Position numbers and translations under genes: made by a program
The notes under the pieces: generated by a model
What the model was told of the DNA's origin: nothing
What the model saw: the letters and a program-made list of their open reading frames with translations, nothing else
Databases searched by the model: none
Shown: positions 5,494-64,000 of the stretch, in pieces
How positions within the stretch are numbered: position 1 is the first letter of the stretch
Layout: every line of letters begins with the position of its first letter
DNA from: Octopus vulgaris
Taxonomy: Eukaryota
DNA: 64,000 bases
Assembly (NCBI GenBank): GCA_951406725.2
Contig: OX597827.1
Span: 80,476,001-80,540,000, forward strand
Reading direction: 5' to 3'

Positions 5494-7869
5494 TGGGGTA
5501 GGTTTTGGTAAAGTTCTCGACTGAACTGAAGATTCATATTTGTTCTGTAGCTGACCTTCTGCATAACATTCACTCTTGGATCTCTCAGAATAGATATTCC
5601 GCTTCACCATCTCTTCTGCATTCCTCGACATAGCAACAGAAGTGTTAGTCTGGTACAACAATTGTTTCATCTCTGCTCTACCTTGGTAGGCTGTATTCTT
5701 TGTGGCAGCAGCTGTGTTATCTCTGTGTTTAATACATTTCATAATACACAGCGTTATAGAAACAACAATAGCCACTGATATTATTACTGCTGATGATACA
5801 ATGATAATAACCCATGTCATATGGACCCGACCTGAAGATTGTAAAGGTCCACTTTTCGACATTGGTGAAGTCTCGTTACTAACAGCCAACACCAAAGTGA
5901 CACTAGTTGTTGACGACTGAACTGGACTACCACTGTCCTTCACAACAAACACCAGCTCATAACTTCCAGCATCATTTAGATAAACTTGTCTGGAGAAGGA
6001 TAAAGCACCACTGTGTGAGTTCATACTAAACAACTGTTTATCATTTCCTTGTATGATTGCATATCTGAGGAAAGCATTGTTTCCACTGTCCCCATCAGAC
6101 GCTCTCAAAACTGTGATGTCACTCTTACTCTGCGGATGGTACTGCACATTTAGCGTGTAAGGGTCACTACTAGGATATGTAAAATACGGAGCATTGTCAT
6201 TTTGATCTAGAATCTCAACAACAACATTCGCCGTGTCATTCAGAGATGGGCTTCCATTATCTTTGACAAAAACCTCAAACTTATACACATCTTGTTTCTC
6301 TCTGTCCAATGACATGGTCGCTGAAATGAAGCCATAACTGGTGATGAGAAACGGGAGATTGGATTTTTCTTTACGCAGCAGAGAATATGTGAGTTGTCCA
6401 GCAGATCCAAGATCAGGGTCAGTGGCATTGACAAAACCAATAGGGAAGTCTTTATCTTTGTTTTCGTAGGTGAGGAATTGGAATGTATCTTTGGTAAACT
6501 GTGGTTGTACATCGTTGATGTCAGTCACTTGGATAGAGAGGCTTTTAACACTTTTAAGAGGAGGTAATCCTTTATCTTGACAGGAGACAGGAATGTTATA
6601 GTGTCCTTGTGTTTCTCTGTCCACTGGTTTGTTTAGAATGATTTTATATTCTTTAGATCCCATTGACTGTAGTTTGAATGTATCATGTTTGATATCACAG
6701 CTGACCTCTCCATTTTGTCCCACATCATTGTCAGTGACCATCACATAAGCAATGAAACTACCAACTTTGATGTTTTCAGAGATGGTACCTGTGTTATAAT
6801 TGAGTGCAGAAACATAATCTATATCCATAGAAGGAGGATTGTTGTGCTGGTTGATAACATTTACGAGGACTGTTGCTATGGAACTGAGAGGAGGGTTGCC
6901 TCTATCTCTAGCCTCTATGAACAATTCGTAAGTTTTCTTTTTCCCTAAGTTTGAATATTCCCTTAAGAAAATACTTCCACTGGTTTCATTTAACTGAAAA
7001 TAGCTTTTTGTTACATCTGATGTCTTTCGGCTGAAATGGAAAGTAATTTTACCATTTTCACCAGCATCAGCATCAGTCACAGACAAAACAATGATGGGTT
7101 TAGACTTGTGATGTGCACTTTGTATGGATATATTGTATAGAGGTTTAGAAAATACAGGTGGGTTGTCATTAACATCTGTCACAGAGATATTTATATTCAA
7201 AATACCTTGTTTTGCTGGCGAACCTCCGTCTTTAGCTATGACTTGTAATAAATATGTATCTTTGATTTCTCTGTCCAATGTTTCTTTTAAAACTATTTTA
7301 AGAGAAGAAATACCGTCAGCTCTTTTAGACACTGATAAAGAGAATGGTTCTCCATTCTTTGATTTTAATTTATATTGTATTAAGGAATTTTGAAATCCAA
7401 CATCTTTGTCCATGGCATTTGGTATTGATTGTTTTGTACCTTTAGCTATATTCTCATAAAACTGTATGTTGGTGTTCTTTATGAGAAACTCCGGTTCATG
7501 GTCATTAATATCTTCTATCACTATTTTGACTTTTAATATTTTTGTGAATGATTCCATTTTCTTTATAATAACTTTGACAGTTCTGGAACATTCTTTGTTG
7601 AATGTGCAGAGATCTTCTGCATCCAGTGTCTGAGCAGTGTACAGTTTACCTGTTTTGGTGATGTTAAATAACTGTGCCACCTTTCGTTTGAATTGACTGA
7701 ATGTTATCAAATGTTGGTCAGATGGTTTAACATTGTCTAAAAGTTTAGAATCGGCAGCAATGTCTGCTACATATGTTCCTGGACTTCTCTCTTCTTCCAC
7801 ATGGTAGGTAAGGTCTATGGTCAGGACACAGTGGACCAGTGACAATACAATAGAAAATGACAGGAACAT
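5494..7869 (-). CDS. Pcdh: Protocadherin gene 1, main exon: signal peptide, EC1-EC6, TM, juxtamembrane
   Basis: Cadherin motifs DINDHEP, LDRE, DVNDNPP, DXD; EC1 C-x5-C loop (LDAEDLCTFNKEC); TM WVIIIVSSAVIISVAIVVSITLCIM; donor CCA|GTAAGT at 5493; acceptor TTTCAG|GTTCA with exon start at 7922. Confidence 0.95.
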
Positions 7870-13379: not shown

Positions 13380-13612
13380 CTTTTTAATAATTATATCATT
13401 GGTTATTCAGTGAGAAAGAGAAAGATGTATTGTTGTAGAAAGATCCATTGTAAGTGCTGCTGTAATGGTGTGACAATGGCTGTATGGTGATGGAGTAGTG
13501 TAGCACGTCAGGCAGAGAGTCTGCTGCTAGGAGAGGGTTGCATGTGTTGTATGTTTGCAGAAGTACATCCACCTAATAATATCCTGTATGTATTTATCCT
13601 TAAAGATGATGT
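13380..13612 (-). other. Leader exon copy B (for gene 1)
   Basis: Conserved core, AG|GTAAGT donor at 13379; carries 1-nt and ~10-nt deletions relative to other copies, so non-coding. Confidence 0.7.
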
Positions 13613-13709
13613 TTGTTATTTAGGTATATATTTTGAGCAGTTACAATATTATAGAGTGAAACAGAACATAATTGTCTGGTTTAAAAACATCAGCAATGTG
13701 AGTGCTTAG

Positions 13710-13781
13710 CTTTGTTAGTGAATTTTTTTCTATGTTTTATTGTGGATTTGATTGGTTGAATGATTGTGACAGAAGACCAAT
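13710..13781 (-). promoter_or_regulatory. Candidate promoter module B
   Basis: ctttgttagtgaat; ttgattgg 13748-13755; ccaat 13777-13781. Confidence 0.6.
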
Positions 13782-14279
13782 GAAGAGGTTCTCTTTTTAC
13801 ATAGATTTGTTTTGAAGGGGCAGAAAAAAAGAATCTGGTGTTAATCATGCCTTCCTCCAGGTTAATGCTGTTAACTAGATATTGTTTTCACTTTATTTTT
13901 GGTAAAGTTGTAGAAAACATCAGTGCTTAGGTTTTAATCAAATTTACCAAATTTTTAAATCACAGAACAATAATTGTTCTGCTTGTAACCTTATATCAAT
14001 TTATAGAATTATACTATTTGGAGCGTACATTTCAGAATTACAATAAAAATCTGATTATTCTGATTTTTCATTTACTAACTTAAAAATATTATAATAATAA
14101 TCCTTATGAATTACATTAATTATTTCAGTTGAATATGAAACTCTCTAAGTCTGTTGAATTACAGAATATCATATTTAACTGGAGAAATGTTGATGCTTTT
14201 TAGCAAACTGTTATTTGGAATCTGCAGTTTTATATACAGTAAAGAAAAAAACAAAAAAATGGGTGTAACAATAAAAACA

Positions 14280-15000: not shown

Positions 15001-17376
15001 TGGGGTAGGTTTTGGTAAAGTTCTCGACTGAACTGAAGATTCATATTTGTTCTGTAGCTGACCTTCTGCATAACATTCACTCTTAGATCTCTCAGAATAG
15101 ATATTCCGCTTCACCATCTCTTCTGCATTCCTCGACATAGCAACAGAAGTGTTAGTCTGGTACAACAATTGTTTCATCTCTGCTCTACCTTGGTAGGCTG
15201 TATTCTTTGTGGCAGCAGCTGTGTTATCTCTGTGTTTAATACATTTCATAATACACAGCGTTATAGAAACAACAATCGCCACTGATATTATTACTGCTGA
15301 TGATACAATGATAATAACCCATGTCATATGGACCCGACCTGAAGATTGTAAAGGTCCACTCTTCGACATTGGTGACGTCTCGTTACTAACAGCCAACACC
15401 AAAGTCACACTAGTTGTTGACGACTGAACTGGACTACCACTGTCCTTCACAACAAACACCAGCTCATAACTTCCAGCATCATTTAGATAAACTTGTCTGG
15501 AGAAGGATAAAGCACCACTGTGTGAGTTCATACTAAACAACTGTTTATCATTTCCTTGTATGATTGCATATCTGAGGAAAGCATTGTTTCCACTGTCCCC
15601 ATCAGAGGCTCTCAAAACTGTGATGTCACTCTTACTCTGCGGATGGTACTGCACATTTAGCGTGTAAGGGTCACTACTAGGATATGTAAAATACGGAGCA
15701 TTGTCATTTTGATCTAGAATCTCAACAACAACATTCGCTGTGTCATTCAGAGATGGGCTTCCATTGTCTTTGACAAAAACCTCAAACTTATACACATCTT
15801 GTTTCTCTCTGTCCAATGACATGGTCGCTGAAATGAAGCCATAACTGGTGATGAGAAATGGGAGATTGGATTTTTCTTTACGCAGCAGAGAATATGTGAG
15901 TTGTCCAGCTGATCCAAGATCAGGGTCAGTGGCATTGACAAAACCAATAGGGAAGTCTTTATCTTTGTTTTCGTAGGTGAGGAATTGGAATGTATCTTTG
16001 GTAAACTGTGGTTGTACATCGTTGATGTCAGTCACTTGGATAGAGAGGCTTTTAACACTTTTAAGAGGAGGTAATCCTTTATCTTGACAGGAGACAGGAA
16101 TGTTATAGTGTCCTTGTGTTTCTCTGTCCACTGGTTTGTTTAGAATGATTTTATATTCTTTAGATCCCATTGACTGTAGTTTGAATGTATCATGTTTGAT
16201 ATCACAGCTGACCTCTCCATTTTGTCCCACATCATTGTCAGTGACCATGACATAAGCAATGAAACTACCGACTTTGATGTTTTCAGAAATGGTAGCTGTG
16301 TTGTCATTGATTGCAGAAACATAATCAATATCAATATTTGGAGGGTTGTTGTGTTGGTTGATAACATTTACCAAAACTGTTGCTATAGAACTAAAGGGTG
16401 GGCTGCCCCCATCTCTGGCTTCTATAAACAATTCATAAGTTTTTTTTTTACTCAGACTTGAATATTTGCTTAATGAAATGTTCCCGTTGTTTTCATTTAA
16501 CTGAAAATAGCTTTTTGCTAAATCTGATGTTTTTGGACTGAAATGGAAAGTAATTTTACCATTTTCACCTGAATCAGCATCAGTTACAGATAAAACAATG
16601 ATGGGTTTAGACTTGTGATGTGTACTTTGTATGGATATATTATATAAAGGTTTAGAAAACTCTGGTGGGTTGTCATTTACATCTATTATCGAAATATTTA
16701 TATTCAAAATCCCTTGTTTTGCTGGTGAACCTCCATCTTTAGCTATGACCTGTAATAAATATGTATCTTTGATTTCTCTGTCTAATGATTCTTTTAAAAC
16801 TATATTAAGAGAAGAAATACCATCAGCTCTTTTAGACACTGACAGAGAGAATGGTTCTCCATTCTTTGATTTTAATTTATATTGTATCAATGAATTTTCG
16901 AATCCTACATCTTTGTCCATAGCATTTGGCAGAGATTGTTTTGTGCCTTTTCCATCTGTCTCAGAGAATTTCAAAGAAATTTGAGCTTTTGGAAATTCAG
17001 GGTGATGGTCATTGATGTCCTCTATTACTATTTTGATTTTTAATATTTTTGAAACACTGGTTCCTTTATTAACCACAACTTTCATAGTTCTGGAACATTC
17101 TTTGTTGAATGTGCAGAGATCTTCTGCATCCAGTGTCTGAGCAGTGTACAGTTTACCTGTTTTGGTGATGTTAAATAACTGTGCCACCTTTCGTTTGAAC
17201 TGACTGAATGTTATCAAATGTTGGTCAGATGGTTTAACATTGTCCAAAAGTTTAGAATCGGCAGCAATGTCTGCTACATATGTTCCTGGACTTCTCTCTT
17301 CTTCCACGTGGTAGGTAAGGTCTATGGTCAGGACACAGTGGACCAGCGACAATACAATACACAATGATAATAACAT
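15001..17376 (-). CDS. Pcdh: Protocadherin gene 2, main exon
   Basis: Six cadherin repeats + TM; start MLLSLCIV at 17376 (in-frame ATG also at 17388); acceptor TTTTAG|GTTCA with exon start at 17431. Confidence 0.95.
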
Positions 17377-17744
17377 GTTGTTGTTCATTGACAGTTCACC
17401 AAAGGATGTCCAGATATGCCTATATATGAACCTAAAATAAAAATATATAATCAATTTTTATTAATAATGAATTTTTTTTTCATAATTTATCAGGCAGGTA
17501 CATTGAAATATATACACACTCAAATTCTTTCCTAGAAGTAGTCGATAGTTTCTATTAACTAGGTGACTTACTTTGCTGTGGTGGGGGGTGCTCTAAAATT
17601 AGAGTATCTATGTTAAATAATGATCAGGATGCTATAATCTCTGCTGGCACCAAAGAGCTTCTCTTCAGAGTGATAGGCAGAGTGCATGGTGCTTGTGTGC
17701 CAAGTGCAATGCTGCATGGCAGTGGGCTATAAAGTTTGCATAGA

Positions 17745-20882: not shown

Positions 20883-21718
20883 TGTCTTTCTCTATCTCCC
20901 CTTTTTATTACCACTCTATTTCAATTCTTAGACACTATTCTAAACATTATAACTAATTGTTTACCTCAACTAATTCTTGCAGAAATTTCTTTGCCATGTG
21001 TTCCCAACTTTTATTAAGCTACAACCAAGGTATACATATTACCATAAGATAGAGAAGAATCTGAAACTCAGAGAAAATAACTAGACCTTGAATAAACAGA
21101 ATCATCTAACTAATGATTGTGTTCTTTGCTCGTTTATGTAACGATGAGAAAACGCAATAGAATATCTATTATCTAAGAACCAAAATTTAAGGACTGAAGA
21201 ATGAAAAAGAATTTTCAGAAAATAAGCATAAACAATGGCAACACTGAAATAAAATCTAAATATTTAAATCTATGTTTCCAAATGAAAAAATATCATTAAA
21301 CTGCATTTTCCTTCAGCACTTTATTTAGGTTTCCATTTATTTATTTGATAGACGTGACTCCTAGTCTGTTCACCATTTACTCAGATTAAAATCATTAACA
21401 CACCATTACTTCATAATTACTAACGGATTTAATGACACTGTAGCAAATTTATAACAGTTTATGTCAACCATCTTAACATATCTTTCACATACGACCTACT
21501 GTGGAGACACAACATAACATCTTATAATAAAAACAAACACTATAAAACTACATTATGTAGACAGACACAATATTGTTTCTGTAAGAGATAATGTTTAAAA
21601 ATTAAACACAGTCTCTTTGTCCTCTTGATAGTATTAAATATGCTAGAACAATATTTTACAGATTCAGTAAGATTTAATATATCAGACGAGATTATAAAAA
21701 GACTAAATATAAACTTAC

Positions 21719-21965
21719 CTTTTTAATAATTATATCATTGGTTATTCAGTGAGAAAGAGAAAGATGTATTGTTGTAGAAAGATCCATTGTAAGTGCTGCT
21801 GTGATGGTGTGACAATGGCTGTTATGGTGATGGAGTAGTGTAGCACGTCAGGCAGAGAGTCTGCTGCTAGGAGAGGGTTGCATGTGTCACTGAAGTTGTA
21901 CGTTTTCTGAGTGTACGTCCACCTGATATTATTCTGTGCATGTATTTAGCCTTAAAGAAGATGTT
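21719..21965 (-). other. Leader exon copy C (for gene 2)
   Basis: Conserved core, AG|GTAAGT donor at 21718. Confidence 0.7.
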
Positions 21966-22066
21966 TACTATTTACATGGATATATATTTAAATAGCTAGA
22001 ATTATGTTTATACTGAAACAGAACATAATTGTTTGGGATAATAACATTAGTGATGTGAAGGCTTGG

Positions 22067-22136
22067 CTTTGTTAGTGAATTGTTGTGTGTTTTATCCCGA
22101 ATCTGATTGGTCGAGTGATCGAAACAGGAGACCAAT
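22067..22136 (-). promoter_or_regulatory. Candidate promoter module C
   Basis: ctttgttagtgaat; ctgattgg 22103-22110; ccaat 22132-22136. Confidence 0.6.
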
Positions 22137-22650: not shown

Positions 22651-22727
22651 TTATACATGTTTGATTGGAGTTTCTTCACTGGAATCTTTCGACGTAGTTG
22701 CATCATTATTCTTATATAAATTTTGAT
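22651..22727 (-). CDS. Pcdh: Protocadherin gene 3, terminal coding exon (DQNLYKNNDATTSKDSSEETPIKHV*)
   Basis: TTCCAG acceptor, 77 nt to stop. Confidence 0.8.
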
Positions 22728-22958
22728 CTGGAATTTAGATTGGAAACATGCATTACAAAATCACAGACTGCAGATTTCCTTAATTAATTGCTTAATGAGA
22801 AAGATGTAAAAACAATTCTGGAGGTTATAATCACAAAAAGTCAGTAAAAATCACTTAAGCAAAAAAGTAAATGAATTCTTTGTCAGAAAATGGAACTAAT
22901 AAAATGTTGATCATTCACAAGATACAAGATTTAAAATATTGCTAATGTAATTATTAAC

Positions 22959-23112
22959 CTGATACTCCTGGTATTTCTTCGTAATGTTTCAAGTTTCCTT
23001 GTCTACCACTTCTCTTGGATGACATTGTATCTGATGTATAGTTACAAACCATAGTAGCATTATCTTCCACAGCATCATCACTTGATGTCACCACAACAGG
23101 TTGACAGTATTT
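22959..23112 (-). CDS. Pcdh: Protocadherin gene 3, cytoplasmic exon
   Basis: 154-nt exon; donor GTTAAT. Confidence 0.85.
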
Positions 23113-23282: not shown

Positions 23283-25658
23283 TGGGGTAGGTTTTGGTAA
23301 AGTTCTTGACTGAACCGAAGATTCATATTTGTTCTGTAGCTGACCTTCTGCATAACATTCACTCTTGGATCTCTCAGAATAGATATTCCGCTTCACCATC
23401 TCTTCTGCATTCCTCGACATAGCAACAGAAGTGTTAGTCTGGTACAACAATTGTTTCATCTCTGCTCTACCTTGGTAGGCTGTATTCTTTGTGGCAGCAG
23501 CTGTGTTATCTCTGTGTTTAATACATTTCATAATACACAGCGTTATAGAAACAACAATAGCCACTGATATTATTACTGCTGATGATACAATGATAATAAC
23601 CCATGTCATATGGACCCGACCTGAAGATTGTAACGGTCCACTCTTCGACATTGGTGATGTCTCGTTACTAACAGCCAATACCAAAGTGACACTAGTTGTT
23701 GACGATTGAACTGGACTACCACTGTCCTTCACAACAAACACCAGCTCATAACTTCCAGCATCATTTAGATAAACTTGTCTGGAGAAGGATAAAGCACCAC
23801 TGTGTGAGTTCATACTAAACAACTGTTTACCATTTCCTTGTATGATTGCATATCTGAGGAAAGCATTGTTTCCACTGTCCCCATCAGAGGCTCTCAAAAC
23901 TGTGATGTCACTCTTACTCTGCGGATGGTACTGCACATTTAGCGTGTAAGGGTCACTACTAGGATATGTAAAATACGGAGCATTGTCATTTTGATCTAGA
24001 ATCTCAACAACAACATTCGCTGTGTCATTCAGAGATGGGCTTCCATTATCTTTGACAAAAACCTCAAACTTATACACATCTTGTTTCTCTCTGTCCAATG
24101 ACATGGTCGCTGAAATGAAGCCATAACTGGTGATGAGAAATGGGAGATTGGATTTTTCTTTACGCAGCAGAGAATATGTGAGTTGTCCAGCAGATCCAAG
24201 ATCAGGGTCAGTGGCATTGACAAAACCAATAGGGAAGTCTTTATCTTTGTTTTCGTAGGTGAGGAATTGGAATGTATCTTTGGTAAACTGTGGTTGTACA
24301 TCGTTGATGTCAGTCACTTGGATAGAGAGGCTTTTAACACTTTTGAGAGGAGGTAATCCTTTATCTTGACAGGAGACAGGAATGTTATAGTGTCCTTGTG
24401 TTTCTCTGTCCACTGGTTTGTTTAGAATGATTTTATATTCTTTAGATCCCATTGACTGTAGTTTGAATGTATCATGTTTGATATCACAGCTGACCTCTCC
24501 ATTTTGTCCCACATCATTGTCAGTGACCATCACATAAGCAATGAAACTACCAACTTTGATGTTTTCAGAGATGGTACCTGTGTTATAATTGAGTGCAGAG
24601 ACATAATCAATATCAATAGATGGAGGATTGTTGTGTTGGTTGATAACATTTACCAGAACAGTTGCTATGGAACTGAGAGGAGGGTTGCCCCCATCTCTGG
24701 CCTCTATAAATAGATCATATGTTTTCCTTTTACCCAAATTAGAATATTTACCTACAAAAATGTCCCCATTGCTTTCATTTAATTGAAAATAGCTTTTAGC
24801 TATATCTGATGTCTTTGGACTGAAGTGGAAAGTAATTTTACCATTTTCACCAGAATCAGCATCTGTCACAGACAAAACAATGATGGGTTTAGACTTGTGA
24901 TGTGCGCTTTGTATGGATATATTATATAGAGGTTTAGAAAATACAGGTGGGTTGTCATTTATATCTATTATGGAAATATTTATGTTTAAAATACCTTGTT
25001 TTGCTGGTGACCCTCCATCTTTAGCTATGACTTGTAATAAATATGTATCTTTGATTTCTCTGTCTAATGATTCTTTTAAAACTATTTTCAGAGAAGAAAT
25101 ACCATCAGCTCTTTTAGACACTGACAGAGAAAATGGTTCTCCATTCTTTGATTTTAATTTATATTGTATTAAGGAATTTTGAAATCCAACATCTTTGTCC
25201 ATAGCATTGGGTATTGATTGTTTTGTGCCCTTTCCATCCGTTTCTGAAAATTTTAGAGAAATTTGTCTTTTGGGAAACTCTGGTTCGTGGTCATTAATAT
25301 CTTCTATTACAATTTTGACTTTTAATATTTTTGTGAAACTATCCATTTTCTTTATAATTACTTTCACAGTTCTGGAACATTCTTTGTTGAATGTGCAGAG
25401 ATCTTCTGCATCCAGTGTCTGAGCAGTGTACAGTTTACCTGTTTTGGTGATGTTAAATAACTGTGCCACCTTTCGTTTGAATTGACTGAATGTTATCAAA
25501 TGTTGGTCAGATGGTTTAACATTGTCTAAAAGTTTAGAATCGGCAGCAATGTCTGCTACATATGTTCCTGGACTTCTCTCTTCTTCCACATGGTAGGTAA
25601 GGTCTATGGTCAGGACACAGTGGACCAGCGACAATACAAAGGTCAATGGCAGTAACAT
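23283..25658 (-). CDS. Pcdh: Protocadherin gene 3, main exon
   Basis: Six cadherin repeats + TM; acceptor with exon start at 25711; donor GTAAGT at 23282. Confidence 0.95.
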
Positions 25659-28175: not shown

Positions 28176-29559
28176 TTGTGTGGAAGCTGTCTCACACAGA
28201 AGCATACTTCATCTTCCTGCCTTCAACGGATTATGCTTTATCTTTCTACAGTTAATACTACAAATTAAGTAGAAAATCTTCACTCGCATTATATTAATAC
28301 TTCATTTGTATTCTATTACAGATTCTATACAACATTCTGCCATTTCAATTCATTTCTCTGCAGCTTTACTCTTTGTCCATCGTCATCCCTAATTAAAAAT
28401 ATATCCATAACTTCACCTGATTGCTGCTAACAGTCTCCACACTCATCCTCATTTAACGTCCGTTTTCCATGCTGGTATGGGTTGGATGGTTTGACAAGAC
28501 CTGCTGAGCTGCAGGACTGAATCGAGCTCCAATGTTAGCTTTGACATGGTTTCTGTCACTAAATGACCTTCCTAATGTCAACCAATGTACACTAGGAGCT
28601 ATTTTCGTGCCACTGGCGCTAGTGAGATACGCAAGTAACTTGAAAGACAGAGAAAGAAGAGGGGAAAGGAAAAAGCTTCCATGACTAAGTGTGAGAGAAG
28701 GTGTATTTGAGGGGAGGGGCTGGCATTATATGCTAGGTGTTGAGAGGCTGAAGTATGACAGAGGGACAAACACAGGTGTCTTGCTGTGGAGGAGATACAT
28801 CACTACCTGACGTGATATAAGAATGGGTAGGAGAAGCTGGGAAGAAGATAGAAATAGTAGTGATGGGATACCAGAGCAAACACAAGGCACAAGGTGAACA
28901 TAAAAGAGGTTACAGACAGTGGATCAGCAGGGAAGGGGAGGGTGGGTAGATTCATAAAAGTCTGAGGAGGGAGAGAGAGAGAGAGTAATAAATGGCTTTC
29001 GATAGCGGTAGAGGTGAGTGTAATGAGTGATGAATAAAGGGTAGGTGTGGTTGATGGGAAATCCCAGTATGGAAAGGGGCTAAGGTGAAAGAGAAGTAGC
29101 TAAGGAAAGATGATAGATCAGAAGGCAGGGGGATATTGTGCAAGTTGTAGGCATGCATAAGGTAATTATGGTGAGTGGGACTTGAAAGCTGATGAGAGGC
29201 CATTGGAGAATGGTAGCAGATATGCAAGGTATCAAGATGGAGAATGCCAGAGGAGATACAGAAAGGAGGTGATCAGTGAAAATAGTGAAGGGAGGATAAT
29301 GTAAGAGAAAGGATGGAAGTGGTTCAAGGGGGCAAAGGGATAATTGGTAGTACAAAGAAATAGGGCAGAGTAACATGTGTCAGTTCTGCTCTCAGAGGTT
29401 TACAGTCGCAAAGTGGCATCAAAGACAGAGGAGTGATGGGGTAGGCTGGGTGTTGGGGGAATAAGATGTGAAGACTGCTTGCTGGGGCAAAATGAGTTAC
29501 AAGCATAAACAGAATGCTTTTAGGACATCATATTTTTGTTGTGATGGGCAAGCCTTCTC

Positions 29560-30370
29560 AAGCTCAATTATTCATCAATCATCTGAGTCTTTTGTCATAT
29601 GATCCACGAGTCTTTAACACCTTCGATATTTCTTCTCGTGTCTTTCTAGGCCTCTCTTTTCCACAAGTTCCAACCACTTGGACTAATCAGCATTCCTTCA
29701 TGCAGCTGTCCACATCTATATGTTTCACGTAGCCAAAAGCCAGCAAAGTCTTCTCTCTTACGCTCTACATTGGATTGCTTTTAAGTCCATTTGTCTCTCA
29801 ATACCTTAACATATTGTCACACATGCACACTGACATCAAAAATACAACAGAGCTCACTAGCTTCCCTCCTCTATAATCTTTATAATATATCTTTTGCATT
29901 CAGGGTCCACATCTCACTCCCATGTAACATTTCTATTCGTACACAATCATAATACAATCTGCCTTTCACTCTGAAAGAATGAGCTTTCATTGGCAACAAA
30001 GGTAGGAGCTCTCTCAAGTTCCTCCATCCTACTCTTATTCTACTAACTACATTTTCAGAATATCCTCTTCTACTGCTACTTAGGTTACCTTGGTAACAAA
30101 CTCTATCTACTACTTCGAGGTAGTCTCTAGGGCACCTGAGCAAATATATTTCCCGTGTGTCCCTCAGCGTTTATTACCCCTGTACACTTTCCATATCCGA
30201 ACACTACTTTCTCCATTAACCTTCTTGTGATTCAACTGCACCTTTTCTCTGTCCATTAACTTGCACTGGGAACACTGTATAGAATTCTTCCCTAACTCCA
30301 ACAACATTTAAACATAGTCGAATTCTTCTTCATATTGTATACCAAAACATCTTAACCTATTTTGCATAGC
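29560..30370 (-). mobile_element. Degenerate RTE-like LINE fragment
   Basis: Translation EVVDRVCYQG...RIRVGWRNLRELLPLL...KGRLY..CVR..MLHGSEMW resembles the RTE-clade region C-terminal of RT. Confidence 0.7.
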
Positions 30371-32990
30371 ATTTAGTAGACAGATAAAACATCCTATCAA
30401 ACATTATAGCACTACCACCCATGCCAGCATGGAAGGCAGGCGTGAAACAATGATGATGATTTTTAGACTACTGTTATTGATCAATATATCTAACAAATAT
30501 TATATAGGCAGATATTATTGTTCTAACTGAATATAGTCTTAGTATAAAACATTTCAATCAATATCACCCAATCAATTATGATATGAAATGATAGGGAAAA
30601 CATTACTGAAATTACAAGAAAATTATTATTCTCTTGCTAATATTGGATATATTAGGATAATGTCTCACAAATTCAGAGAGATTTAGTAAATCAATTTGAG
30701 ATCTTTGTCATTAATCCCTGAGAAAAGATTGACTGCTTAAATTTGGTGATGGTGATGAAGTCACAACAATCATCCAAGAGTGGTTCTTTATTTAGTCTGA
30801 TTAATTCACTGGCACTGTTCTACTTACTTTTATGTTTCCATTAACTGAGTAATCAATCCTGAACATTTAACAAGTATTCTATTGTCAAGGCATCCGTCAC
30901 TTTATCTCTCTCTTGGCTCAAGTGGCATTAGGTTTTCTATATTTTAGTCATTTTTCTTGGAGTTATATTTTTATCTAATTCAAAAATATCTTATACAATC
31001 CAAACACATTTTTCTCTTGATTCTAAACATTTCACATTTCTCATATGCATTTCGTTTTAATCAATGCTTTTGACATACAGCTTTTTTCAAACTTGAAGGT
31101 TAGCTATTATTCCTCACTATTGCCTTTTATTTACCTCTAACAAACTTTCCACTCTTACAGTTGTACTGGCAACATCACTCCATAATAATCTTGTCAAATA
31201 TTTGAGTCTCTGAACCATAAAATTAGTCAATGACTAGCAACCAGATCTCCCAAAGGTGTCCCCAGTCAGCAACTTTGTAAATACAAGTTATGAGTTCAAA
31301 TTCCGCTGAGGTCGACTTCCCCTTTCATCCTTTCAAGGTCGATAAATTAAGTACCAGTTTCGTACTGGGGTCGATCTAATTGACTAGCCCCCTCCACCAA
31401 AATTTCAGTAGAAAAAAGAAAAGTTGTCTGTTCTTATGTACATGTTGTACATATAATGCTTCGTTAGAGGTTTGTGGAAGCTGCTCACACAGGGGCACAC
31501 TTCAACTTCCACATCTGCCAAACTTTTTCCGATTATTTTTCATGACTGCGTTTTCATTATCTTTGCATTAAACTTTGTCATCACTAAACTATGTTTGGAA
31601 TTACTCACCCAGGAGAAAATTTAAAGGTTTTAAAAAGTTGTCTTTATCACTTCCTCAGTAATAGCAAATAAAGTAAAAAAAAGAAAAACAAAACAAAACA
31701 AACAAAAAACCCTCCTATAATGCCTAATATCTACTTATAAACATTATAACTTTAAAAATTTAACACACTCACCAGTAAAATTTCCACTTATTTATTTTTA
31801 TTTACCTAAAATTTTCTTTGTGTCTTGCAACCTTTTCAATAGTCTTGACTATTGAAAAGGTTGCAAGACGCAAAGAAAATTTTAGGAAAATAAAAATAAA
31901 TAAGTGGAAATTTACCAGTGATTGCGTTAAATTATAAGGCACAAAAAGAAAATGACTCTCCCCAGACACAACAGAATATGCTTCAACACACGAACTCATA
32001 TAAAGAATTTTGCAAACCAAATCCAAAAACGAAATTGTAAAATTTAGTTATCAATATATTAAAAATAATCAAATATTTATAAAACAAAATATAAAGCAAA
32101 GTTGAGCAAAATTTATGCTGAAGGAAGTCACACAAAGACCAGATGAAAAAAAATATTAAAAATTTTTAAAAAACGCTAATTTCTGTGTAAAAAATATTGT
32201 CGTTATGACCACACAAAAATTGAAATGTGATCAAATATATATATTTTAAAATCAACTTATATATATATATATATACATATATTTATTATATATTTATTAT
32301 ATATACATATATATATACATATATACACACACACATACATACATACATATGTATATTCAACTTGAGTATATATATATATTTAAGTATATAAGTATTTTAC
32401 TTACATTAAAACTGAACACTTCAACTGTATAATATTAATTAAAAATTCTACACTATTTTCCATTTCCGTTCATTTCACAACAACCCTGAATCTGTGTCTG
32501 ACCTCCATTATCCCCAACCACAAATGCATACACATCTTCACCACGTTACTGCTAATAATATATATATTCTGTAATATATTATAGCATTAAACATATTATG
32601 GCCTGTTTCTTAATATTTTATACCATCAACTACATGGAAACAGTTACATCACTAAAGATCTTACAAAAAGCAAAAATGATTAAACGTTATAAAACTACAT
32701 TTAAAGATTGTTCCCTATTGTTATTGATCAATATATGTAACAAATATTATTCAGACACAGAGGATATTGTTTCAACCGAAAGCAGACAAAGCATTAGATA
32801 TTTCAATCAACCTCATCCAACTGATTGTAATATAAAACAATATGGGCAACATTACTAAGAAAATACTTGTGACTTATTGTTCAATGTCTTTGTTCCCTTG
32901 TAAATATCAAATGTGTAAGTACAATGTCTTATAGACTTAGTGAGATTTATTATATCAAATGAGATTATAAAAGATTAAATAGAAACTTAC

Positions 32991-33235
32991 CTTTTTAGTA
33001 ATTATATCATTGGTTATTCAGTGAGAAAGAGAAAGATGTATTGTTGTAGAAAGATCCATTGTAAGTGCTGCTGTAATGGTGTGACAATGGCTGTTATGGT
33101 GATGGAGTAGTGTAGCACGTCAGGCAGAGAGTCTGCTGCTAGGAGAGGGTTGCATGTGTCACTGAAGTTGTATGTTTTGTGAGAGTACGTCCATCTAATA
33201 ATATTCTGTATGTATTTATCCTTAAAGATGATGTT
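32991..33235 (-). other. Leader exon copy D (for gene 3)
   Basis: Conserved core, AG|GTAAGT donor at 32990. Confidence 0.7.
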
Positions 33236-33355
33236 TACTATTTACAAATATATATTAGATAGATAGATAGATAAATATTAAAATAGCTAAAAAATTAGTC
33301 AGTGAAACATAACATAATTGCTTAATTTGATAACACTAGTAATGTGAAAGCTTAT

Positions 33356-33423
33356 CTTTGTTAATGAATTTTTCTGTTCTTGTGAGAATCTGATTGGTTG
33401 AATGATTACGACCGAAAGCCACT
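33356..33423 (-). promoter_or_regulatory. Candidate promoter module D (second box is CCACT)
   Basis: ctttgttaatgaat; ctgattgg 33390-33397; ccact 33419-33423. Confidence 0.55.
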
Positions 33424-34687: not shown

Positions 34688-37060
34688 TGGGGTAGGTTTT
34701 GGTAAAGTTCTCGACTGAACTGAAGATTCATATTTGTTCTGAAGCTGACCTTCTGCATAACATTCACTCTTGGATCTCTCAGAATAGATATTCCGCTTCA
34801 CCATCTCTTCTGCATTCCTCGACATAGCAACAGAAGTGTTAGTCTGGTACAACAATTGTTTCATCTCTGCTCTACCTTGGTAGGCTGTATTCTTTGTGGC
34901 AGCAGCTGTGTTATCTCTGTGTTTAATACATTTCATAATACACAGCGTTATAGAAACAACAATAGCCACTGATATTATTACTGCTGATGATACAATGATA
35001 ATAACCCATGTCATATGGACCCGACCTGAAGATTGTAAAGGTCCACTCTTCGACATTGGTGATGTCTCGTTACTAACAGCCAATACCAAAGTGACACTAG
35101 TTGTTGACGACTGAACTGGACTACCACTGTCCTTCACAACAAACACCAGCTCATAACTTCCAGCATCATTTAGATAAACTTGTCTGGAGAAGGATAAAGC
35201 ACCACTGTGTGAGTTCATACTAAACAACTGTTTATCATTTCCTTGTATAATTGCATATCTGAGGAAAGCATTGTTTCCACTGTCCCCATCAGAGGCTCTC
35301 AAAACTGTGATGTCACTCTTACTCTGCGGATGGTACTGCACATTTAGCGTATAAGGGTCACTACTAGGATATGTAAAATACGGAGCATTGTCATTTTGAT
35401 CTAGAATCTCAACAACAACATTCGCTGTGTCATTCAGAGATGGGCTTCCATTATCTTTGACAAAAACCTCAAACTTATACACATCTTGTTTCTCTCTGTC
35501 CAATGACATGGTCGCTGAAATGAAGCCATAACTGGTGATGAGAAATGGGAGATTGGATTTTTCTTTACGCAGCAGAGAATATGTGAGTTGTCCAGCAGAT
35601 CCAAGATCAGGGTCAGTGGCATTGACAAAACCAATAGGGAAGTCTTTATCTTTGTTTTCGTAGGTGAGGAATTGGAATGTATCTTTGGTAAACTGTGGTT
35701 GTACATCGTTGATGTCAGTCACTTGGATAGAGAGGCTTTTAACACTTTTCAGAGGAGGTAATCCTTTATCTTGACAGGAGACAGGAATGTTATAGTGTCC
35801 TTGTGTTTCTCTGTCCACTGGTTTGTTTAGAATGATTTTATATTCTTTAGATCCCATTGACTGTAGTTTGAATGTATCATGTTTGATATCACAGCTGACC
35901 TCTCCATTTTGTCCCACATCATTGTCAGTGACCATCACATAAGCAATGAAACTACCAACTTTGATGTTTTCAGAGATGGTACCTGTATTGTCATTGATTG
36001 CATTAACATAATCAATATCAATAGATGGAGGATTGTTGTGTTGGTTGATAACATTTACCAAAACAGTTGCTATGGAACTGAGTGGTGGGTTACCTCCATC
36101 TCTGGCCTCTACAAATAATTCAAAAGTATTTTTTTCATTCAAACTAGAAATTCTAGATAAAAATACTTTGCCAGTCTTTTTATCCAATTCGAAATATTTC
36201 TTTGCTAAATCAGAAGTTTTGGGGCTGAAATGGAAAGTAATTTTACTGTTGGACCCTGCATCTTTGTCTGTCACTGACAAAGTAAGAATGGGTTTTGTCT
36301 TGTCGTGTGTGGTTCTAATGGAAATGTTATAAAGGGGTTTTGAAAATACAGGTGGATTATCATTCTCATCTTCAACAACAATCTCAACATTTAACACACT
36401 CTGTTTAGATGGAGAACCTCCATCTTTAGCAATTACTTCTAAATTGTATTTTTCTTTTAACTCTCTGTCTAATTTTTCTTTTAAAACAATCTTTAACGAG
36501 GAAATACCATCAGCTCTTTTAGACACTGTCAGGGAAAATGAGTCATCAGATTTTTTAAGTTTGTATTCAATGAAAGAATTTTGATAACTCACATCTTTGT
36601 CTATGGCATTTGGAATTGATTTTTTCATTCCTCTCCCATCACCTTCTTCAAAATGTAGATTGATTTGTTTTTCTGGAAACTCTGGTTCATGGTCATTGAT
36701 ATCTTCTATTACTATTTTGACTTTTAATATTTTTGTGAATGTTGCCACTTTCTTTATAATAACTTTCATAGTTCTAGAACATTCTTTGTTGAATGTGCAG
36801 AGATCTTCTGCATCCAGTGTCTGAGCAGTGTACAGTTTACCTGTTTTGGTGATGTTAAATAACTGTGCCACCTTTCGTTTGAATTGACTGAATGTTATCA
36901 AATGTTGGTCAGATGGTTTAACATTGTCTAAAAGTTTAGAATCGGCAGCAATGTCTGCTACATATGTTCCTGGACTTCTCTCTTCTTCCACATGGTAGGT
37001 AAGGTCTATGGTCAAGACACAGTGGACCATTGACAATACAATAGACAATGACAGGAACAT
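34688..37060 (-). CDS. Pcdh: Protocadherin gene 4, main exon (most divergent EC2-EC3)
   Basis: Six cadherin repeats + TM; one codon shorter in EC2; acceptor with exon start at 37116. Confidence 0.95.
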
Positions 37061-46176: not shown

Positions 46177-48552
46177 TGGGGTAGGTTTTGGTAAAGTTCT
46201 CGACTGAACTGAAGATTCATATTTGTTCTGTAGCTGACCTTCTGCATAACATTCACTCTTGGATCTCTCAGAATAGATATTCCGCTTCACCATCTCTTCT
46301 GCATTCCTCGACATAGCAACAGAAGTGTTAGTCTGGTACAACAATTGTTTCATCTCTGCTCTACCTTGGTAGGCTGTATTCTTTGTGGCAGCAGCTGTGT
46401 TATCTCTGTGTTTAATACATTTCATAATACACAGCGTTATAGAAACAACAATAGCCACTGATATTATTACTGCTGATGATACAATGATAATAACCCATGT
46501 CATATGGACCCGACCTGAAGATTGTAAAGGTCCACTTTTTGACATTGGTGATGTCTCATTACTAACAGCCAATACCAAAGTGACACTAGTTGTTGACGAC
46601 TGAACTGGACTACCACTGTCCTTCACAACAAACACCAGCCCATAACTTCCAGCATCATTTAGATAAACTTGTCTGGAGAAGGATAAAGCACCACTGTGTG
46701 AGTTCATACTAAACAACTGTTTATCATTTCCTTGTATGATTGCATATCTGAGGAAAGCATTGTTTCCACTGTCCCCATCAGACGCTCTCAACACTGTGAT
46801 GTCACTCTTACTCTGCGGATGGTACTGCACATTTAGCGTGTAAGGGTCACTACTAGGATATGTAAAATACGGAGCATTGTCATTTTGATCTAGAATCTCA
46901 ACAACAACATTCGCTGTGTCATTCAGAGATGGGCTTCCATTATCTTTGACAAAAACCTCAAACTTATACACATCTTGTTTCTCTCTGTCCAATGACATGG
47001 TCGCTGAAATGAAGCCATAACTGGTGATGAGAAATGGGAGATTGGATTTTTCTTTACGCAGCAGAGAATATGTGAGTTGTCCAGCAGATCCAAGATCAGG
47101 GTCAGTGGCATTGACAAAACCAATAGGGAAGTCTTTATCTTTGTTTTCGTAGGTGAGGAATTGGAATGTATCTTTGGTAAACTGTGGTTGTACATCGTTG
47201 ATGTCAGTCACTTGGATAGAGAGGCTTTTAACACTTTTGAGAGGAGGTAATCCTTTATCTTGACAGGAGACAGGAATGTTATAGTGTCCTTGTGTTTCTC
47301 TGTCCACTGATTTGTTTAGAATGATTTTGTATTCTTTAGATCCCATTGACTGTAGTTTGAATGTATCATGTTTGATATCACAGCTGACCTCTCCATTTTG
47401 TCCCACATCATTGTCAGTGACCATCACATAAGCAATGAAACTACCAACTTTGATGTTTTCAGAAATGGTAGCTGTGTTGTCATTGATTGCATTAACATAA
47501 TCAATATCAATAGATGGAGGATTATTGTGTTGGTTGATAACATTTACCAAAACTGTAGCTATAGAACTAAAGGGTGGACTGCCTCCATCCCTGGCTTCTA
47601 TAAACAATTCATAAGTTTTTTTTTTACTCAGACTAGTATATTTATTTAATAAAATGCTTCCACTGGTTTCATTTAAGTGAAAATAGCTTTCTGCTATATC
47701 TGATGTCTTTGGACTGAAATGGAAAGTAATTTTACCATTTTCACCAGCATCAGCATCAGTTACAGACAAAACAATGATGGGTTTGGATTTGTGATGTGTA
47801 CTTTGTATGGATATATTATAGAGAGGTTTAGAAAACTCAGGTGGGTTATCATTAACATCTATTACAGAAATATTTATATTCAAAATTCCTTGTTTTGCTG
47901 GTGACCCTCCATCTTTAGCTATGACCTGTAATAAATATGTATCTTTGATTTCTCTGTCTAATGATTCTTTTAAAACTATGTTAAGAGAAGAAATACCATC
48001 AGCTCTTTTAGACACTGACAGAGAGAATGGTTCTCCATTCTTTGATCGTAATTTATATTGTATTAAGGAATTTTGAAATCCTATATCTTTGTCCATAGCA
48101 TTGGGTATTGATCTTTTTGCACCTTTACCAATGTCTTCATCAAACTCTATGTTGACATTTCTCATAGGAAACTCTGGTTCATGGTCATTGATATCTTCTA
48201 TTACTATCTTGATTTTTAATATTTTTGAAACACTGGTTCCTTTATTGACAACCACCTTCATAGTTCTGGAACATTCTTTGTTGAATGTGCAGAGATCTTC
48301 TGCATCCAGTGTCTGAGCAGTGTACAGTTTACCTGTTTTGGTGATGTTAAATAACTGTGCCACCTTTCGTTTGAATTGACTGAATGTTATCAAATGTTGG
48401 TCAGATGGTTTAACATTGTCTAAGAGTTTAGAATCGGCAGCAATGTCTGCTACATATGTTCCTGGACTTCTCTCTTCTTCCACGTGGTAGGTAAGGTCTA
48501 TGGTCAGGACACAGTGGACCATTGACAATACAATAGACACTGACAAGAACAT
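46177..48552 (-). CDS. Pcdh: Protocadherin gene 5, main exon
   Basis: Six cadherin repeats + TM; acceptor with exon start at 48604; donor at 46176. Confidence 0.95.
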
Positions 48553-52888: not shown

Positions 52889-52988
52889 ACTATTTACATG
52901 GATATATATTTAAATAGCTAGAATTATGTTTATACTGAAACAGAACATAATTGTTTGGGATAATAACATTAGTGATGTGAAGGCTTGG

Positions 52989-54264: not shown

Positions 54265-56640
54265 TGGGGTAGGTTTTGGTAAAGTTCTCGACTGAACTGA
54301 AGATTCATATTTGTTCTGTAGCTGACCTTCTGCATAACATTCACTCTTGGATCTCTCAGAATAGATATTCCGCTTCACCATCTCTTCTGCATTCCTCGAC
54401 ATAGCAACAGAAGTGTTAGTCTGGTACAACAATTGTTTCATCTCTGCTCTACCTTGGTAGGCTGTATTCTTTGTGGCAGCAGCTGTGTTATCTCTGTGTT
54501 TAATACATTTCATAATACACAGCGTTATAGAAACAACAATAGCCACTGATATTATTACTGCTGATGATACAATGATAATAACCCATGTCATATGGACCCG
54601 ACCTGAAGATTGTAAAGGTCCACTCTTCGACATTGGTGATGTCTCGTTACTAACAGCCAATACCAAAGTGACACTAGTTGTTGACGACTGAACTGGACTA
54701 CCACTGTCCTTCACAACAAACACCAGCTCATAACTTCCAGCATCATTTAGATAAACTTGTCTGGAGAAGGATAAAGCACCACTGTGTGAGTTCATACTAA
54801 ACAACTGTTTAGCATTTCCTTGTATGATTGCATATCTGAGGAAAGCATTGTTTCCACTGTCCCCATCAGACGCTCTCAAAACTGTGATGTCACTCTTACT
54901 CTGCGGATGGTACTGCACATTTAGCGTGTAAGGGTCACTACTAGGATATGTAAAATACGGAGCATTGTCATTTTGATCTAGAATCTCAACAACAACATTC
55001 GCCGTGTCATTCAGAGATGGGCTTCCATTATCTTTGACAAAAACCTCAAACTTATACACATCTTGTTTCTCTCTGTCCAATGACATGGTTGCTGAAATGA
55101 AGCCATAACTGGTGATGAGAAATGGGAGATTGGATTTTTCTTTACGCAGCAGAGAATATGTGAGTTGTCCAGCAGATCCAAGATCAGGGTCAGTGGCATT
55201 GACAAAACCAATAGGGAAGTCTTTATCTTTGTTTTCGTAGGTGAGGAATTGGAATGTATCTTTGGTAAACTGTGGTTGTACATCGTTGATGTCAGTCACT
55301 TGGATAGAGAGGCTTTTAACACTTTTAAGAGGAGGTAGTCCTTTATCTTGACAGGAGACAGGAATGTTATAGTGTCCTTGTGTTTCTCTGTCCACTGGTT
55401 TGTTTAGAATGATTTTATATTCTTTAGATCCCATTGACTGTAGTTTGAATGTATCATGTTTGATATCACAGCTGACCTCTCCATTTTGTCCCACATCATT
55501 GTCAGTGACCATCACATAAGCAATGAAACTACCAACTTTGATGTTTTCAGAAATGGTAGCTGTGTTGTCATCGATTGCATTAACATAATCAATATCAATA
55601 GATGGAGGATTGTTGTGTTGGTTGATGACATTTACCAAAACAGTTGCTATAGAAATGAGAGGAGGGCTGCCCCCGTCTCTGGCTTCAATAAACAATTCAT
55701 AGGTTTTCTTTTTACCCAGATTTGAATATTCCCTTAACAGAATATTTCCACTGGTTTCGTTCAATTGAAAATAGCTTTTTGCTATATCTGATGTCTTTGG
55801 ACTAAAATGGAAAGTAATTTTACCATTTTCACCAGCATCAACATCAGTCACAGACAAAACAATGATGGGTTTAGACCTGTGATGTTTACTTTGTATGGAT
55901 ATATTATACAGAGGTTTAGAAAATACAGGTGGGTTGTCATTTTCATCTGTTACAGAAATATTTATATTCAAAATCCCTTGTTTTGCTGGTGACCCTCCAT
56001 CTTTAGCTATGACCTGTAATAAATATGTATCTTTGATTTCTCTGTCCAATGATTCTTTTAAAACTATTTTAAGAGAAGAAATTCCATCAGCTCTTTTAGA
56101 CACTGACAGAGAGAATGGTTCTCCATTCTTTGATTTTAATTTATATTGTATTAAGGAATTTTGAAATCCTATATCCTTGTCCATTGCGTTTGGTAGTGAC
56201 ACTTTGGCTCCATCACGATCATGTTCACCAAACTGTATATTAACTACCCTCATAGGAAACTCTGGTTGATGGTCATTAATGTCTTCTATGATTATTTTGA
56301 TTTTTAATATTTTTGAAACACTGGTTCCTTTATTGACAACAACTTTCATAGTTCTGGAACATTCTTTGTTGAATGTGCAGAGATCTTCTGCATCCAGTGT
56401 CTGAGCAGTGTACAGTTTACCTGTTTTGGTGATGTTAAATAACTGTGCCACCTTTCGTTTGAATTGACTGAATGTTATCAAATGTTGGTCAGATGGTTTA
56501 ACATTGTCTAAAAGTTTAGAATCGGCAGCAATGTCTGCTACATATGTTCCTGGACTTCTTTCTTCTTCCACGTGGTAGGTAAGGTCTATGGTCAGGACAC
56601 AGTGGACCAGTGACAATACAATGGACAATGACAGGAACAT
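54265..56640 (-). CDS. Pcdh: Protocadherin gene 6, main exon
   Basis: Six cadherin repeats + TM; acceptor with exon start at 56692. Confidence 0.95.
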
Positions 56641-62496: not shown

Positions 62497-64000
62497 TGGG
62501 GTAGGTTTTGGTAAAGTTCTCGACTGAACTGAAGATTCATATTTGTTCTGTAGCTGACCTTCTGCATAACATTCACTCTTGGATCTCTCAGAATAGATAT
62601 TCCGCTTCACCATCTCTTCTGCATTCCTCGACATAGCAGCAACAGAAGTGTTAGTCTGGTACAACAATTGTTTCATCTCTGCTCTACCTTGGTAGGTTGT
62701 ATTCTTTGTGGAAGCAGCTGTGTTATCTCTGTGTTTAATACATTTCATAATACACAGCGTTATAGAAACAACAATAGCCACTGATATTATTACTGCTGAT
62801 GATACAATGATAATAACCCATGTCATATGGACCCGACCTGAAGATTGTAAAGGTCCACTCTTCGACATTGGTGACGTCTCGTTACTAACAGCCAATACCA
62901 AAGTGATACTAGTTGTTGACGACTGAACTGGACTACCACTGTCCTTCACAACAAACACCAGCTCATAACTTCCAGCATCATTTAGATAAACTTGTCTGGA
63001 GAAGGATAAAGCACCACTGTGTGAGTTCATACTAAACAGCTGTTTATCATTTCCTTGTTTGATTGCATATCTGAGGAAAGCATTGTTTCCACTGTCCCCA
63101 TCAGACGCTCTCAAAACTGTGATGTCACTCTTACTCTGCGGATGGTACTGCACATTTAGCGTGTAAGGGTCACTACTAGGATATGTAAAATACGGAGCAT
63201 TGTCATTTTGATCTAGAATCTCCACAACAACATTCGCTGTGTCATTCAGAGATGGGCTTCCATTGTCTTTGACAAAAACCTCAAACTTATACACATCTTG
63301 TTTCTCTCTGTCCAATGACATGGTCGCTGAAATGAAGCCATAACTGGTGATGAGAAATGGGAGATTGGATTTTTCTTTACGCAGCAGAGAATATGTGAGT
63401 TGTCCAGCAGATCCAAGATCAGGGTCAGTGGCATTGACAAAACCAATAGGGAAGTCTTTATCTTTGTTTTCGTAGGTGAGGAATTGGAATGTATCTTTGG
63501 TAAACTGTGGTTGTACATCGTTGATGTCAGTCACTTGGATAGAGAGGCTTTTAACACTTTTAAGAGGAGGTAATCCTTTATCTTGACAGGAGACAGGAAT
63601 GTTATAGTGTCCTTGTGTTTCTCTGTCCACTGGTTTGTTTAGAATGATTTTATATTCTTTAGATCCCATTGACTGTAGTTTGAATGTATCATGTTTGATA
63701 TCACAGCTGACCTCCCCATTTTGTCCCACATCATTGTCAGTGACCATCACATAAGCAATGAAACTACCAACTTTGGTATCTTCAGAAATGGTAGCTGTGT
63801 TGTCATTGATTGCAGAAACATAATCAATATCAATAGATGGAGGATTGTTGTGTTGATTGATAACATTTACAAGAACTGTTGCTATGGAACTAAAGGGTGG
63901 GCTGCCCCCATCTCTGGCTTCTATAAACAATTCGTAGGTTTTCTTTTTACCCAGACTTGAATATTTACTTAACAAAATAGTGCCACTTGTTTCATTTAAT
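62497..64000 (-). CDS. Pcdh: Protocadherin gene 7, main exon (partial, mid-EC3 onward)
   Basis: Frame open to the window edge (LNETSGTILLSKY...); EC4-EC6, TM; donor at 62496. Confidence 0.93.

Follow-up and report, generated by a model that had tools for sequence, protein, structure and literature searches.

Seven tandem octopod protocadherin genes lie on the minus strand of the window, the 64,000-nucleotide stretch of Octopus vulgaris DNA analyzed here; six have complete open reading frames (810-833 codons) and the seventh is cut by the window edge (Table 1). Residues and codons are numbered on gene 3, with its ATG at 25658, and positions 24570-25370 correspond to codons 97-363 of that gene. 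The original prediction held that new specificities arise by swapping an inner EC2-EC3 cassette within a fixed outer EC1/EC4 pair, and the motif strings it quoted for genes 1-6 were all found, on the minus strand. The encoded proteins have five inter-repeat linkers (six EC repeats), a Cys pair in EC1 (CTFNKEC) and a TM segment, traits of the protocadherins. The EC1 hairpin comes in two classes in Octopus and Argonauta, IIKK..FT (K) and VVNKG (N), which are referred to below as the outer classes.

The nearest relatives are found in O. vulgaris, O. sinensis, O. bimaculoides, and Argonauta hians; PF08266 is annotated on these relatives and a fold search also gives protocadherins. As same-strand, full-gene tandem copies close to annotated octopod protocadherins, the genes belong to the octopod clustered protocadherins, and genes 4 and 6 match proteins named for Octopus vulgaris without any difference in their cores. 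Every one of the seven carries a splice donor and a pair of downstream coding exons of its own, thus they are full-gene duplicates, which matches the description of the coleoid arrays in the accessible text of PMC9068888.

Several other features accompany the genes. A 5.8 kb block that includes intergenic DNA is common to genes 6 and 7 at 95% identity (49999-55765 vs. 58161-64000), and this duplication is younger than those of the other units, though residues 328 and 366 differ between the two genes. A segment of ~500 bases, 77-94% alike between copies, recurs once per gene unit 3' of the last coding exon and could represent a 3' UTR or help regulate the next gene. Intergenic repeats present in some units only are probably remnants of mobile elements. 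An N-glycosylation sequon lies in the EC3 D-E loop (24771-24779, codons 294-296) of genes 1, 3, 5, 6, and 7, is shifted in gene 2 and is missing in gene 4; residue 294 couples to 300 in the DCA described below.

Table 1. Genes and features of the window, with codons numbered on gene 3.
Feature	Position	Strand	Remarks
Gene 1, large first coding exon	5494..7869	-	Signal, EC1-6, TM, part of tail; outer class K, Y358-G361; inner pair K191-L328
Gene 2, first coding exon	15001..17388	-	Outer class N, D358-A361; inner pair N191-F328
Gene 3, first coding exon	23283..25658	-	Outer class K, Y358-G361; inner pair K191-L328
Gene 4, first coding exon	34688..37060	-	Outer class K, D358-G361; divergent EC2-EC3 type; K191-L328
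Gene 5, first coding exon	46177..48552	-	Outer class N; N191-F328
Gene 6, first coding exon	54265..56640	-	Outer class N; K191-L328
Gene 7, 3' part of first coding exon	62497..64000	-	F328, D366
Gene 3, EC1 F strand, F-G hairpin, and G strand (codons 98-114)	25317..25367	-	Dimorphic K/N block; K99, I101, D106, K113 in gene 3
Gene 3, EC2 A-A'-B block (codons 125-153)	25200..25286	-	Highest variability of all segments
Gene 3, codon 191 (EC2 strand E)	25086..25088	-	K/N; co-varies with 328
Gene 3, EC3 D-E and E-F stretch (codons 293-312)	24723..24782	-	Hypervariable; DRE motif missing; off the canonical interface
Gene 3, codon 328 (EC3 F-G loop/start of G)	24675..24677	-	L/F/I; co-varies with 191
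Gene 3, EC3-EC4 linker	24627..24641	-	NQHNN replaces DxNDN
Gene 3, EC4 loop within strand A (codons 353-361)	24576..24602	-	L356-Y358-G361 vs. I-D-A
Gene 3, EC4 codons 366-368	24555..24563	-	366 is D/N/K, charge-coupled to EC1 106 family-wide
Gene 3, downstream coding exons	22654..23112	-	Gene 3's own pair (matches at 23112-22960 and 22734-22654)
Recurrent segment of ~500 bases	1646-2133, 13344-13812, 21650-22119, 32887-33406, 44107-44595, 52607-53082, 60793-61269		Once per gene unit
Intergenic repeat	9289-11233 vs. 29042-30988		Some units only
Further intergenic repeats	11235-11434, 38198-38404, 39972-40169, 41239-41433, 42345-42542		Some units only

Homogenized flanks and a mosaic interior

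The paralog sample comprised 48 genes, with 14 from O. vulgaris (the six full window genes and eight records), 12 from O. sinensis, and 22 from Argonauta. Left out were the database records that duplicate genes 4 and 6, a pair of redundant O. sinensis units, all O. bimaculoides records, the distant paralogs P0004, P0013-15, P0019, and P0152-56, and the last unit of P0144, and the closest cluster was sampled through 15 of its 24 members. O. sinensis is too near O. vulgaris for independence and was therefore kept out of the pooled main tests, and a pooled two-species Mantel r was discarded because species differences inflate the values. All sites were scanned against all, stratified by species and inner type (5,240 site pairs). 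A monomer model of gene 3 (pLDDT 87.5) was the source of strand boundaries only; a complex prediction of its EC1-4 homodimer, run without an alignment, scored 0.01 and carries no weight for or against a dimer. A search among 50% representatives returned nearly exclusively giant multi-repeat cadherins and was set aside.

Among the six full genes variation is restricted to the signal peptide and codons 98-367, with ~1% difference in EC1 18-97 and in the region beyond codon 368. In the five genes other than gene 4, pS is ~0.04 in EC1 18-97 and EC4b-EC6 and 0.40-0.69 in the EC1 F-G, EC2 A-B, and EC3 D-G blocks. The variable blocks are best taken as old alleles that resist homogenization. Positive selection (pN > pS) was sought block by block, and pN was below pS in every block. 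Four positions (53, 388, 443, and 275) are near-fixed per species across paralogs, with H53 in 14/14 vs. Q53 in 22/22, which is the usual mark of concerted evolution. Exons are ~95% alike and most flank matches 70-85%. Signal peptides (25608-25658 and equivalents) differ at ~10% of bases between paralogs and the next 240 bases at ~1%, thus homogenization ends at the mature N-terminus.

The recombination-type shuffling that had been proposed is borne out by the window genes. At 88 biallelic informative sites, 54% of site pairs are incompatible and adjacent sites are more compatible than in shuffled order (p = 0.0006). The incompatible fraction is 0.26, 0.41, and 0.56 at distances of ≤10, 10-30, and 30-100 bases and remains on a plateau of 0.53-0.58 from 100 out to 600 bases, a pattern that points to exchange in tracts of tens of bases, beyond homoplasy alone. 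With tracts this short the EC2-EC3 cassette does not stand as the unit of exchange, and the six genes display 15 distinct partitions in EC2 and 15 in EC3. Block trees are not congruent either; window DNA trees join genes 2 and 3 in EC2 A-B (86/82) and genes 2 and 5 in EC3 (99/98), and both EC1 F-G (81/84) and EC4 A (97/97) join genes 1 and 3. Families of EC2 A-A'-B alleles are common to both outer classes and several species, four of the eight multi-member families being found with both classes. Mixing of the outer class with this EC2 block is therefore real, at the scale of ~25 codons and not of two domains. Gene 4 has a divergent EC2-EC3 type (23-35% base difference) between ordinary homogenized flanks; this inner type is also found in O. 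sinensis and Argonauta genes, always with a K-class EC1 as its partner. Genes 2 and 5 are near through late EC2 and EC3 (4-10% base difference).

The inner linkages originally described did not hold up. With the window genes excluded, none of the five marker pairs associates (p = 0.15-1): QISLKFSETD occurs with ISIID in 1/5, with DADSG in 3/5, and with NExNG in 1/5, and NIQF occurs with ISVTD in 2/8 and with LREYSNLG in 2/8. Genes 1 and 6, which had been named as sharers of inner blocks, show a 32% base difference over codons 123-160 and so do not have that block in common. Two of the markers, NExNG and LREYSNLG, map to the EC3 D-E/E-F stretch, away from the shared interface motifs of vertebrates. 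This stretch and EC2 A-A'-B are the two most variable; the site-pair scan gave no strong partner for the former and no strong EC3 partner for the latter's A-B block (best ranks 71-88). The location of variable residues weighs against an interface reading, as the vertebrate motifs hold only 34% of the variability in 26% of the positions.

Coupled residues and a degenerate calcium linker

The outer pairing, of the EC1 hairpin class with the EC4 loop, extends beyond six genes and to three species but falls short of family-wise significance. G361 is present in 5/6 K-class vs. 0/8 N-class genes of O. vulgaris (p = 0.003), in 6/6 vs. 0/6 of O. sinensis, and in 4/8 vs. 0/14 of Argonauta; among genes with the common inner type, Y358 and G361 are seen in 5/6 K vs. 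0/22 N genes (p = 6e-5). The Mantel r of EC1 F-G with the EC4 A-loop is the highest of 45 segment pairs in all three species (0.47, 0.78, and 0.68; p = 0.005-0.011). It should be noted that the pair fails the family-wise test over the 5,240 site pairs (p = 0.11) and gives four independent pairs on the tree (p = 0.25). In O. vulgaris alone, EC3 sites 301 and 325 follow the EC1 class as closely as the EC4 loop does, late EC3 partly tracks the outer class, and inner distance also follows it in O. sinensis (p = 0.027). Few lineages may underlie the K-class/Y358 genes. On codons 125-342, a clade of the four O. vulgaris K genes with the common inner type is rejected (p-AU 0.011), and in Octopus the EC1 hairpin is coupled to a site 250 codons away and not to blocks at a distance of ten codons. 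The model puts the coupled segments in the EC1 F-G hairpin and the EC4 strand-A loop, both among the shared interface motifs in the accessible text of PMC5115871. In vertebrate dimers the EC4 loop after beta1a stands against the EC1 beta6-beta7 loop (PMC5001838, accessible text), so the co-variation does sit, as proposed, at loops that touch there. Overall, the data are suggestive of an EC1 hairpin class that co-travels with the EC4 strand-A loop 750 bases away, the intervening DNA being scrambled.

For EC2:EC3, the single pair above the family-wise threshold of the scan is 191-328 (p = 0.001). N191 is found with F328 or I328 in 16/17 genes and K191 with L328 in 19/19 (35/36 genes fit); the pair holds in both inner types, in Octopus and in Argonauta, and is weaker in O. 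sinensis (2/3 vs. 1/9, p = 0.13). It assorts without regard to the outer class (p = 0.74), with 11, 11, 8, and 5 genes in the outer x inner states plus one mixed gene. All four combinations, as had been roughly described for six genes, are thus present among 36, and the six window genes display three. What persists of the two-module code is a pair of independently assorting modules, and the antiparallel idea gains support from other residues; the inner markers named for it, and its cassette scale, do not persist. The model places 191 on strand E of EC2 and 328 at the F-G loop of EC3. Both adjoin interface motifs listed in the accessible part of PMC5115871, and they map to gamma 163/297, which adjoin and do not coincide with the pairs 159-302 and 162-302 of the vertebrate coupling list. 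The coupling is possibly an intramolecular effect near the EC2-EC3 junction. A clade of N191 genes in O. vulgaris is not rejected (p-AU 0.22, three rows). At segment level, the EC2 A-B x EC3 Mantel test gave no signal in either Octopus species (p > 0.14) and a single positive result, for Argonauta, amid a general background (r = 0.47, p = 0.011).

Mean-field DCA was applied to a shallow alignment of 192 EC1-4 sequences (of 214 collected at at least 42% identity, from the named octopods plus further records; effective depth 73-141). The inter-domain leaders were 106-366, 106-368, 191-328, and then 62-351, 113-407, 99-377, 99-407, and 101-361, with 106-366 and 106-368 at ranks 2-5 and 191-328 at 2-8; EC1:EC4 pairs form 21 of the top 50. 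Residue 366 is acidic in 79/81 sequences with K/R106 and basic in none, and with acidic 106 (n = 55) it is basic in 14, neutral in 37, and acidic in 4. Once the window subfamily is removed (133 rows), 106-366 becomes rank 1 of 93,528, 62-351 stands at 17, 113-407 at 27, 99-377 at 37, and 99-407 at 46, and 191-328 and 101-361 fall to 21,488 and 41,530. Within the subfamily D366 accompanies R106 in 7/7 vs. 4/29, and all six full window genes have N366. Independent-pairs tests, on a tree built without the tested columns and with pairs selected from the DCA beforehand, gave a median p of 0.002 for 106/366, 0.016 for 191/328, 0.5 for 99-407 (two pairs), and 0.125 for 62-351 (seven); three crossed control pairs gave p = 1. 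A reversed-charge group at 99, 113, 377, and 407 (~15 sequences) is probably a few lineages, and several top inter-domain pairs of the EC2:EC4 and EC1:EC2 types, as well as the high-scoring pairs 209-416, 73-209, and 53-388, look like shared ancestry. In the accessible vertebrate clustered coupling list, 99-407 maps to gamma 77-371 (row 8) and 62-351 to about gamma 39-41:320 (39-320 is row 31); neither 106-366 nor 191-328 has an exact counterpart among the listed rows. The octopod EC1 F-G hairpin is ~four residues longer than the vertebrate one. As far as so shallow an alignment allows, coevolving EC1:EC4 and EC2:EC3 residue pairs appear to be present, as in vertebrate clustered and delta protocadherins.

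The calcium motifs, named as in the accessible text of PMC5115871, depart from the canonical set at one junction. DxND is found at the EC3-EC4 linker in 0/204 octopod-type sequences, at the EC1-2 and EC2-3 linkers in 212/212, and at EC4-5 in 178/186. The EC3 xEx glutamate occurs in 26/213 and EC3 DxE in 7/203, and EC4 retains DxD and xDx in octopod-type relatives; all seven window genes have the same junction, without EC3 xEx, DRE, and linker DxND. The EC3-EC4 motif is kept in 22/25 distant comparison proteins. A degenerate linker is also seen in the distant (~33%) protocadherin-like records P0204, P0205, and P0209, so the loss may reach past octopods. We predict a low- or no-calcium, non-canonical hinge inside the recognition unit, and as the motif is missing, its geometry may differ from that of vertebrates.

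Proposed short-tract conversion and selection, and the alternatives

The reading that best fits these results, and that we hold to be probable if well short of certain, is short-tract gene conversion combined with selection for self-compatible antiparallel EC1:EC4 and EC2:EC3 contacts. Gene conversion between paralogs would move short shared segments, the shuffling unit would be a patch of tens of bases and not a domain cassette, and selection would keep together residues predicted to meet across an antiparallel EC1:EC4, EC2:EC3 homodimer, conversions that break self-binding being purged. Since one gene encodes both partners of a self-binding antiparallel dimer, a one-sided conversion would be tolerated only with a matching other side. 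Short tracts should erase all distant association alike, however, the coupled sites are 137-260 codons apart and blocks ten codons apart assort freely, which argues for selection on the pairs. The patch combinations may set the binding specificity of the predicted homophilic dimer. Much more tentatively, and with more doubt than confidence, conversion might mix at least three independently assorting patches (the EC1 hairpin with the EC4 base, strand E of EC2 with the F-G loop of EC3, and the A-B block of EC2) into an octopod neuronal recognition code, on an antiparallel dimer set apart from that of vertebrates by an EC3-EC4 hinge free of calcium and by the 106-366 charge switch.

Alternatively, the couplings could be leftover shared ancestry, with old haplotypes randomly eroded by conversion and the pairs unselected. 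Few independent K-class lineages, the family-wise result for the outer pair (p = 0.11), linkage running from EC4 into late EC3, and the fact that DCA also yields pairs fitting no interface would all be expected under such a history. It is nonetheless an unlikely one, as 106-366 is charge-complementary through ~30 state changes on the tree with essentially no contrary pairs, 191-328 holds across both inner types and in Octopus and Argonauta, the crossed controls are null, and near blocks are uncoupled in Octopus where a site 250 codons off is coupled.

It could also be that the contacts are real and belong to another assembly, such as a bent or shifted dimer that uses the calcium-free EC3-EC4 hinge, heterophilic pairing of paralogs, or an intramolecular effect behind 191-328. 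Degeneration of the EC3-EC4 linker alone among otherwise canonical linkers is in keeping with this, as are the longer hairpin, the position of the hypervariable EC3 D-E/E-F stretch off the canonical face, and the strongest pair, 106-366, having no vertebrate counterpart among the listed rows. However, within-gene coupling is what homophilic binding predicts, and 99-407, 99-377, and 62-351 map onto or beside vertebrate trans positions. A calcium-stiffened EC1-EC3 rod would, moreover, keep EC1 from reaching EC4 of the same chain, and such assemblies seem quite unlikely.

That double crossover or long conversion swaps whole EC2-EC3 cassettes inside a constant EC1/EC4 frame is very unlikely and as a mechanism largely refuted; the full-length distinctness of the gene-4 type between ordinary flanks and the nearness of genes 2 and 5 through late EC2 and EC3 would suit it, but the EC2 A-B and EC3 trees conflict, both domains are finely partitioned among six genes, the markers dissociate elsewhere, and the gene-4 inner type is restricted to the K class, so swapping is not free. 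An assembly artefact of near-identical tandem copies has in its favor the ~95% likeness of the exons and that no listed contig spans the whole variable region or bridges the EC1 hairpin to the EC2 block, but it is hardly credible given that other species contain counterparts of genes 6, 4, 2, and 5 with 2, 9, 14, and 17 differences out of 438, that runs X1, X2, and X3, from three studies of which X1 is perhaps the source, hold mismatch-free pieces specific to gene 3, and that the same couplings recur in separate species.

Relation to known protocadherin systems

Gene conversion that homogenizes cephalopod protocadherin arrays has already been suggested (PMC9068888, PMC6339937); the accessible text of PMC9068888 is silent on function, interface, tract structure, and calcium linkers, and PMC9795677 and PMC10084454 cover, in theirs, expansion and exon layout only. 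In the open literature we found no study that deals with binding, structure, coevolution, or calcium linkers in cephalopod protocadherins, and subscription papers (Wang and Ragsdale, 2017) may bear on this. The selection-and-conversion reading speaks to cephalopod protocadherin recognition, on which the genome papers, in their accessible parts, make no functional claim. The sequences would be evidence that cephalopods reuse the antiparallel EC1-4 mode despite an independent expansion, an ancestral mode of this type having been proposed by parsimony (PMC5001838, accessible text). Conversion would be able to diversify a recognition region and not merely homogenize it, and one calcium junction within the recognition unit is flagged as lost throughout the family. 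The mode can be tested with few mutants through the single residue pairs 106-366, 191-328, and 99/113-407; in vertebrates specificity resides in both interfaces and can be switched by exchanging residues (PMC5106212; 10.1101/493106, accessible parts).

The window itself belongs to the coleoid cephalopod arrays of full-gene tandem duplicates (Albertin et al., 2022, PMC9068888, accessible text). The vertebrate clustered protocadherins (alpha, beta, and gamma) are alike in having six EC repeats, one large ectodomain exon, and a tandem array, in their conversion-homogenized EC4-6 and diverse EC2-3 (PMC4978886), and in their coevolving EC1:EC4 and EC2:EC3 pairs (PMC5001838; 10.1101/493106), as far as the accessible text of these papers goes, and the predicted octopod fold matches vertebrate EC1-4 structures. 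They differ in that the octopod expansion is independent, that alpha and gamma variable exons are spliced to shared constant exons whereas 7/7 octopod genes have their own tail exons, and that the canonical EC3-4 calcium motif is missing in octopod proteins. They differ further in what conversion does; it spares EC2-3 in vertebrates, with Xenopus EC2-EC3 reportedly escaping it (PMC4978886, accessible text), and shuffles patches inside EC2-EC3 in octopods. The best sequence and fold matches among solved structures are the delta-2 protocadherins (Pcdh8, 10, 17, 18, and 19), at ~30% identity only. These are single-copy genes, unlike the octopod array, the calcium sites of Pcdh19 are canonical at all three EC1-4 linkers, and they form the antiparallel EC1-4 dimer (PMC5115871, accessible text) that we infer for the octopod proteins.
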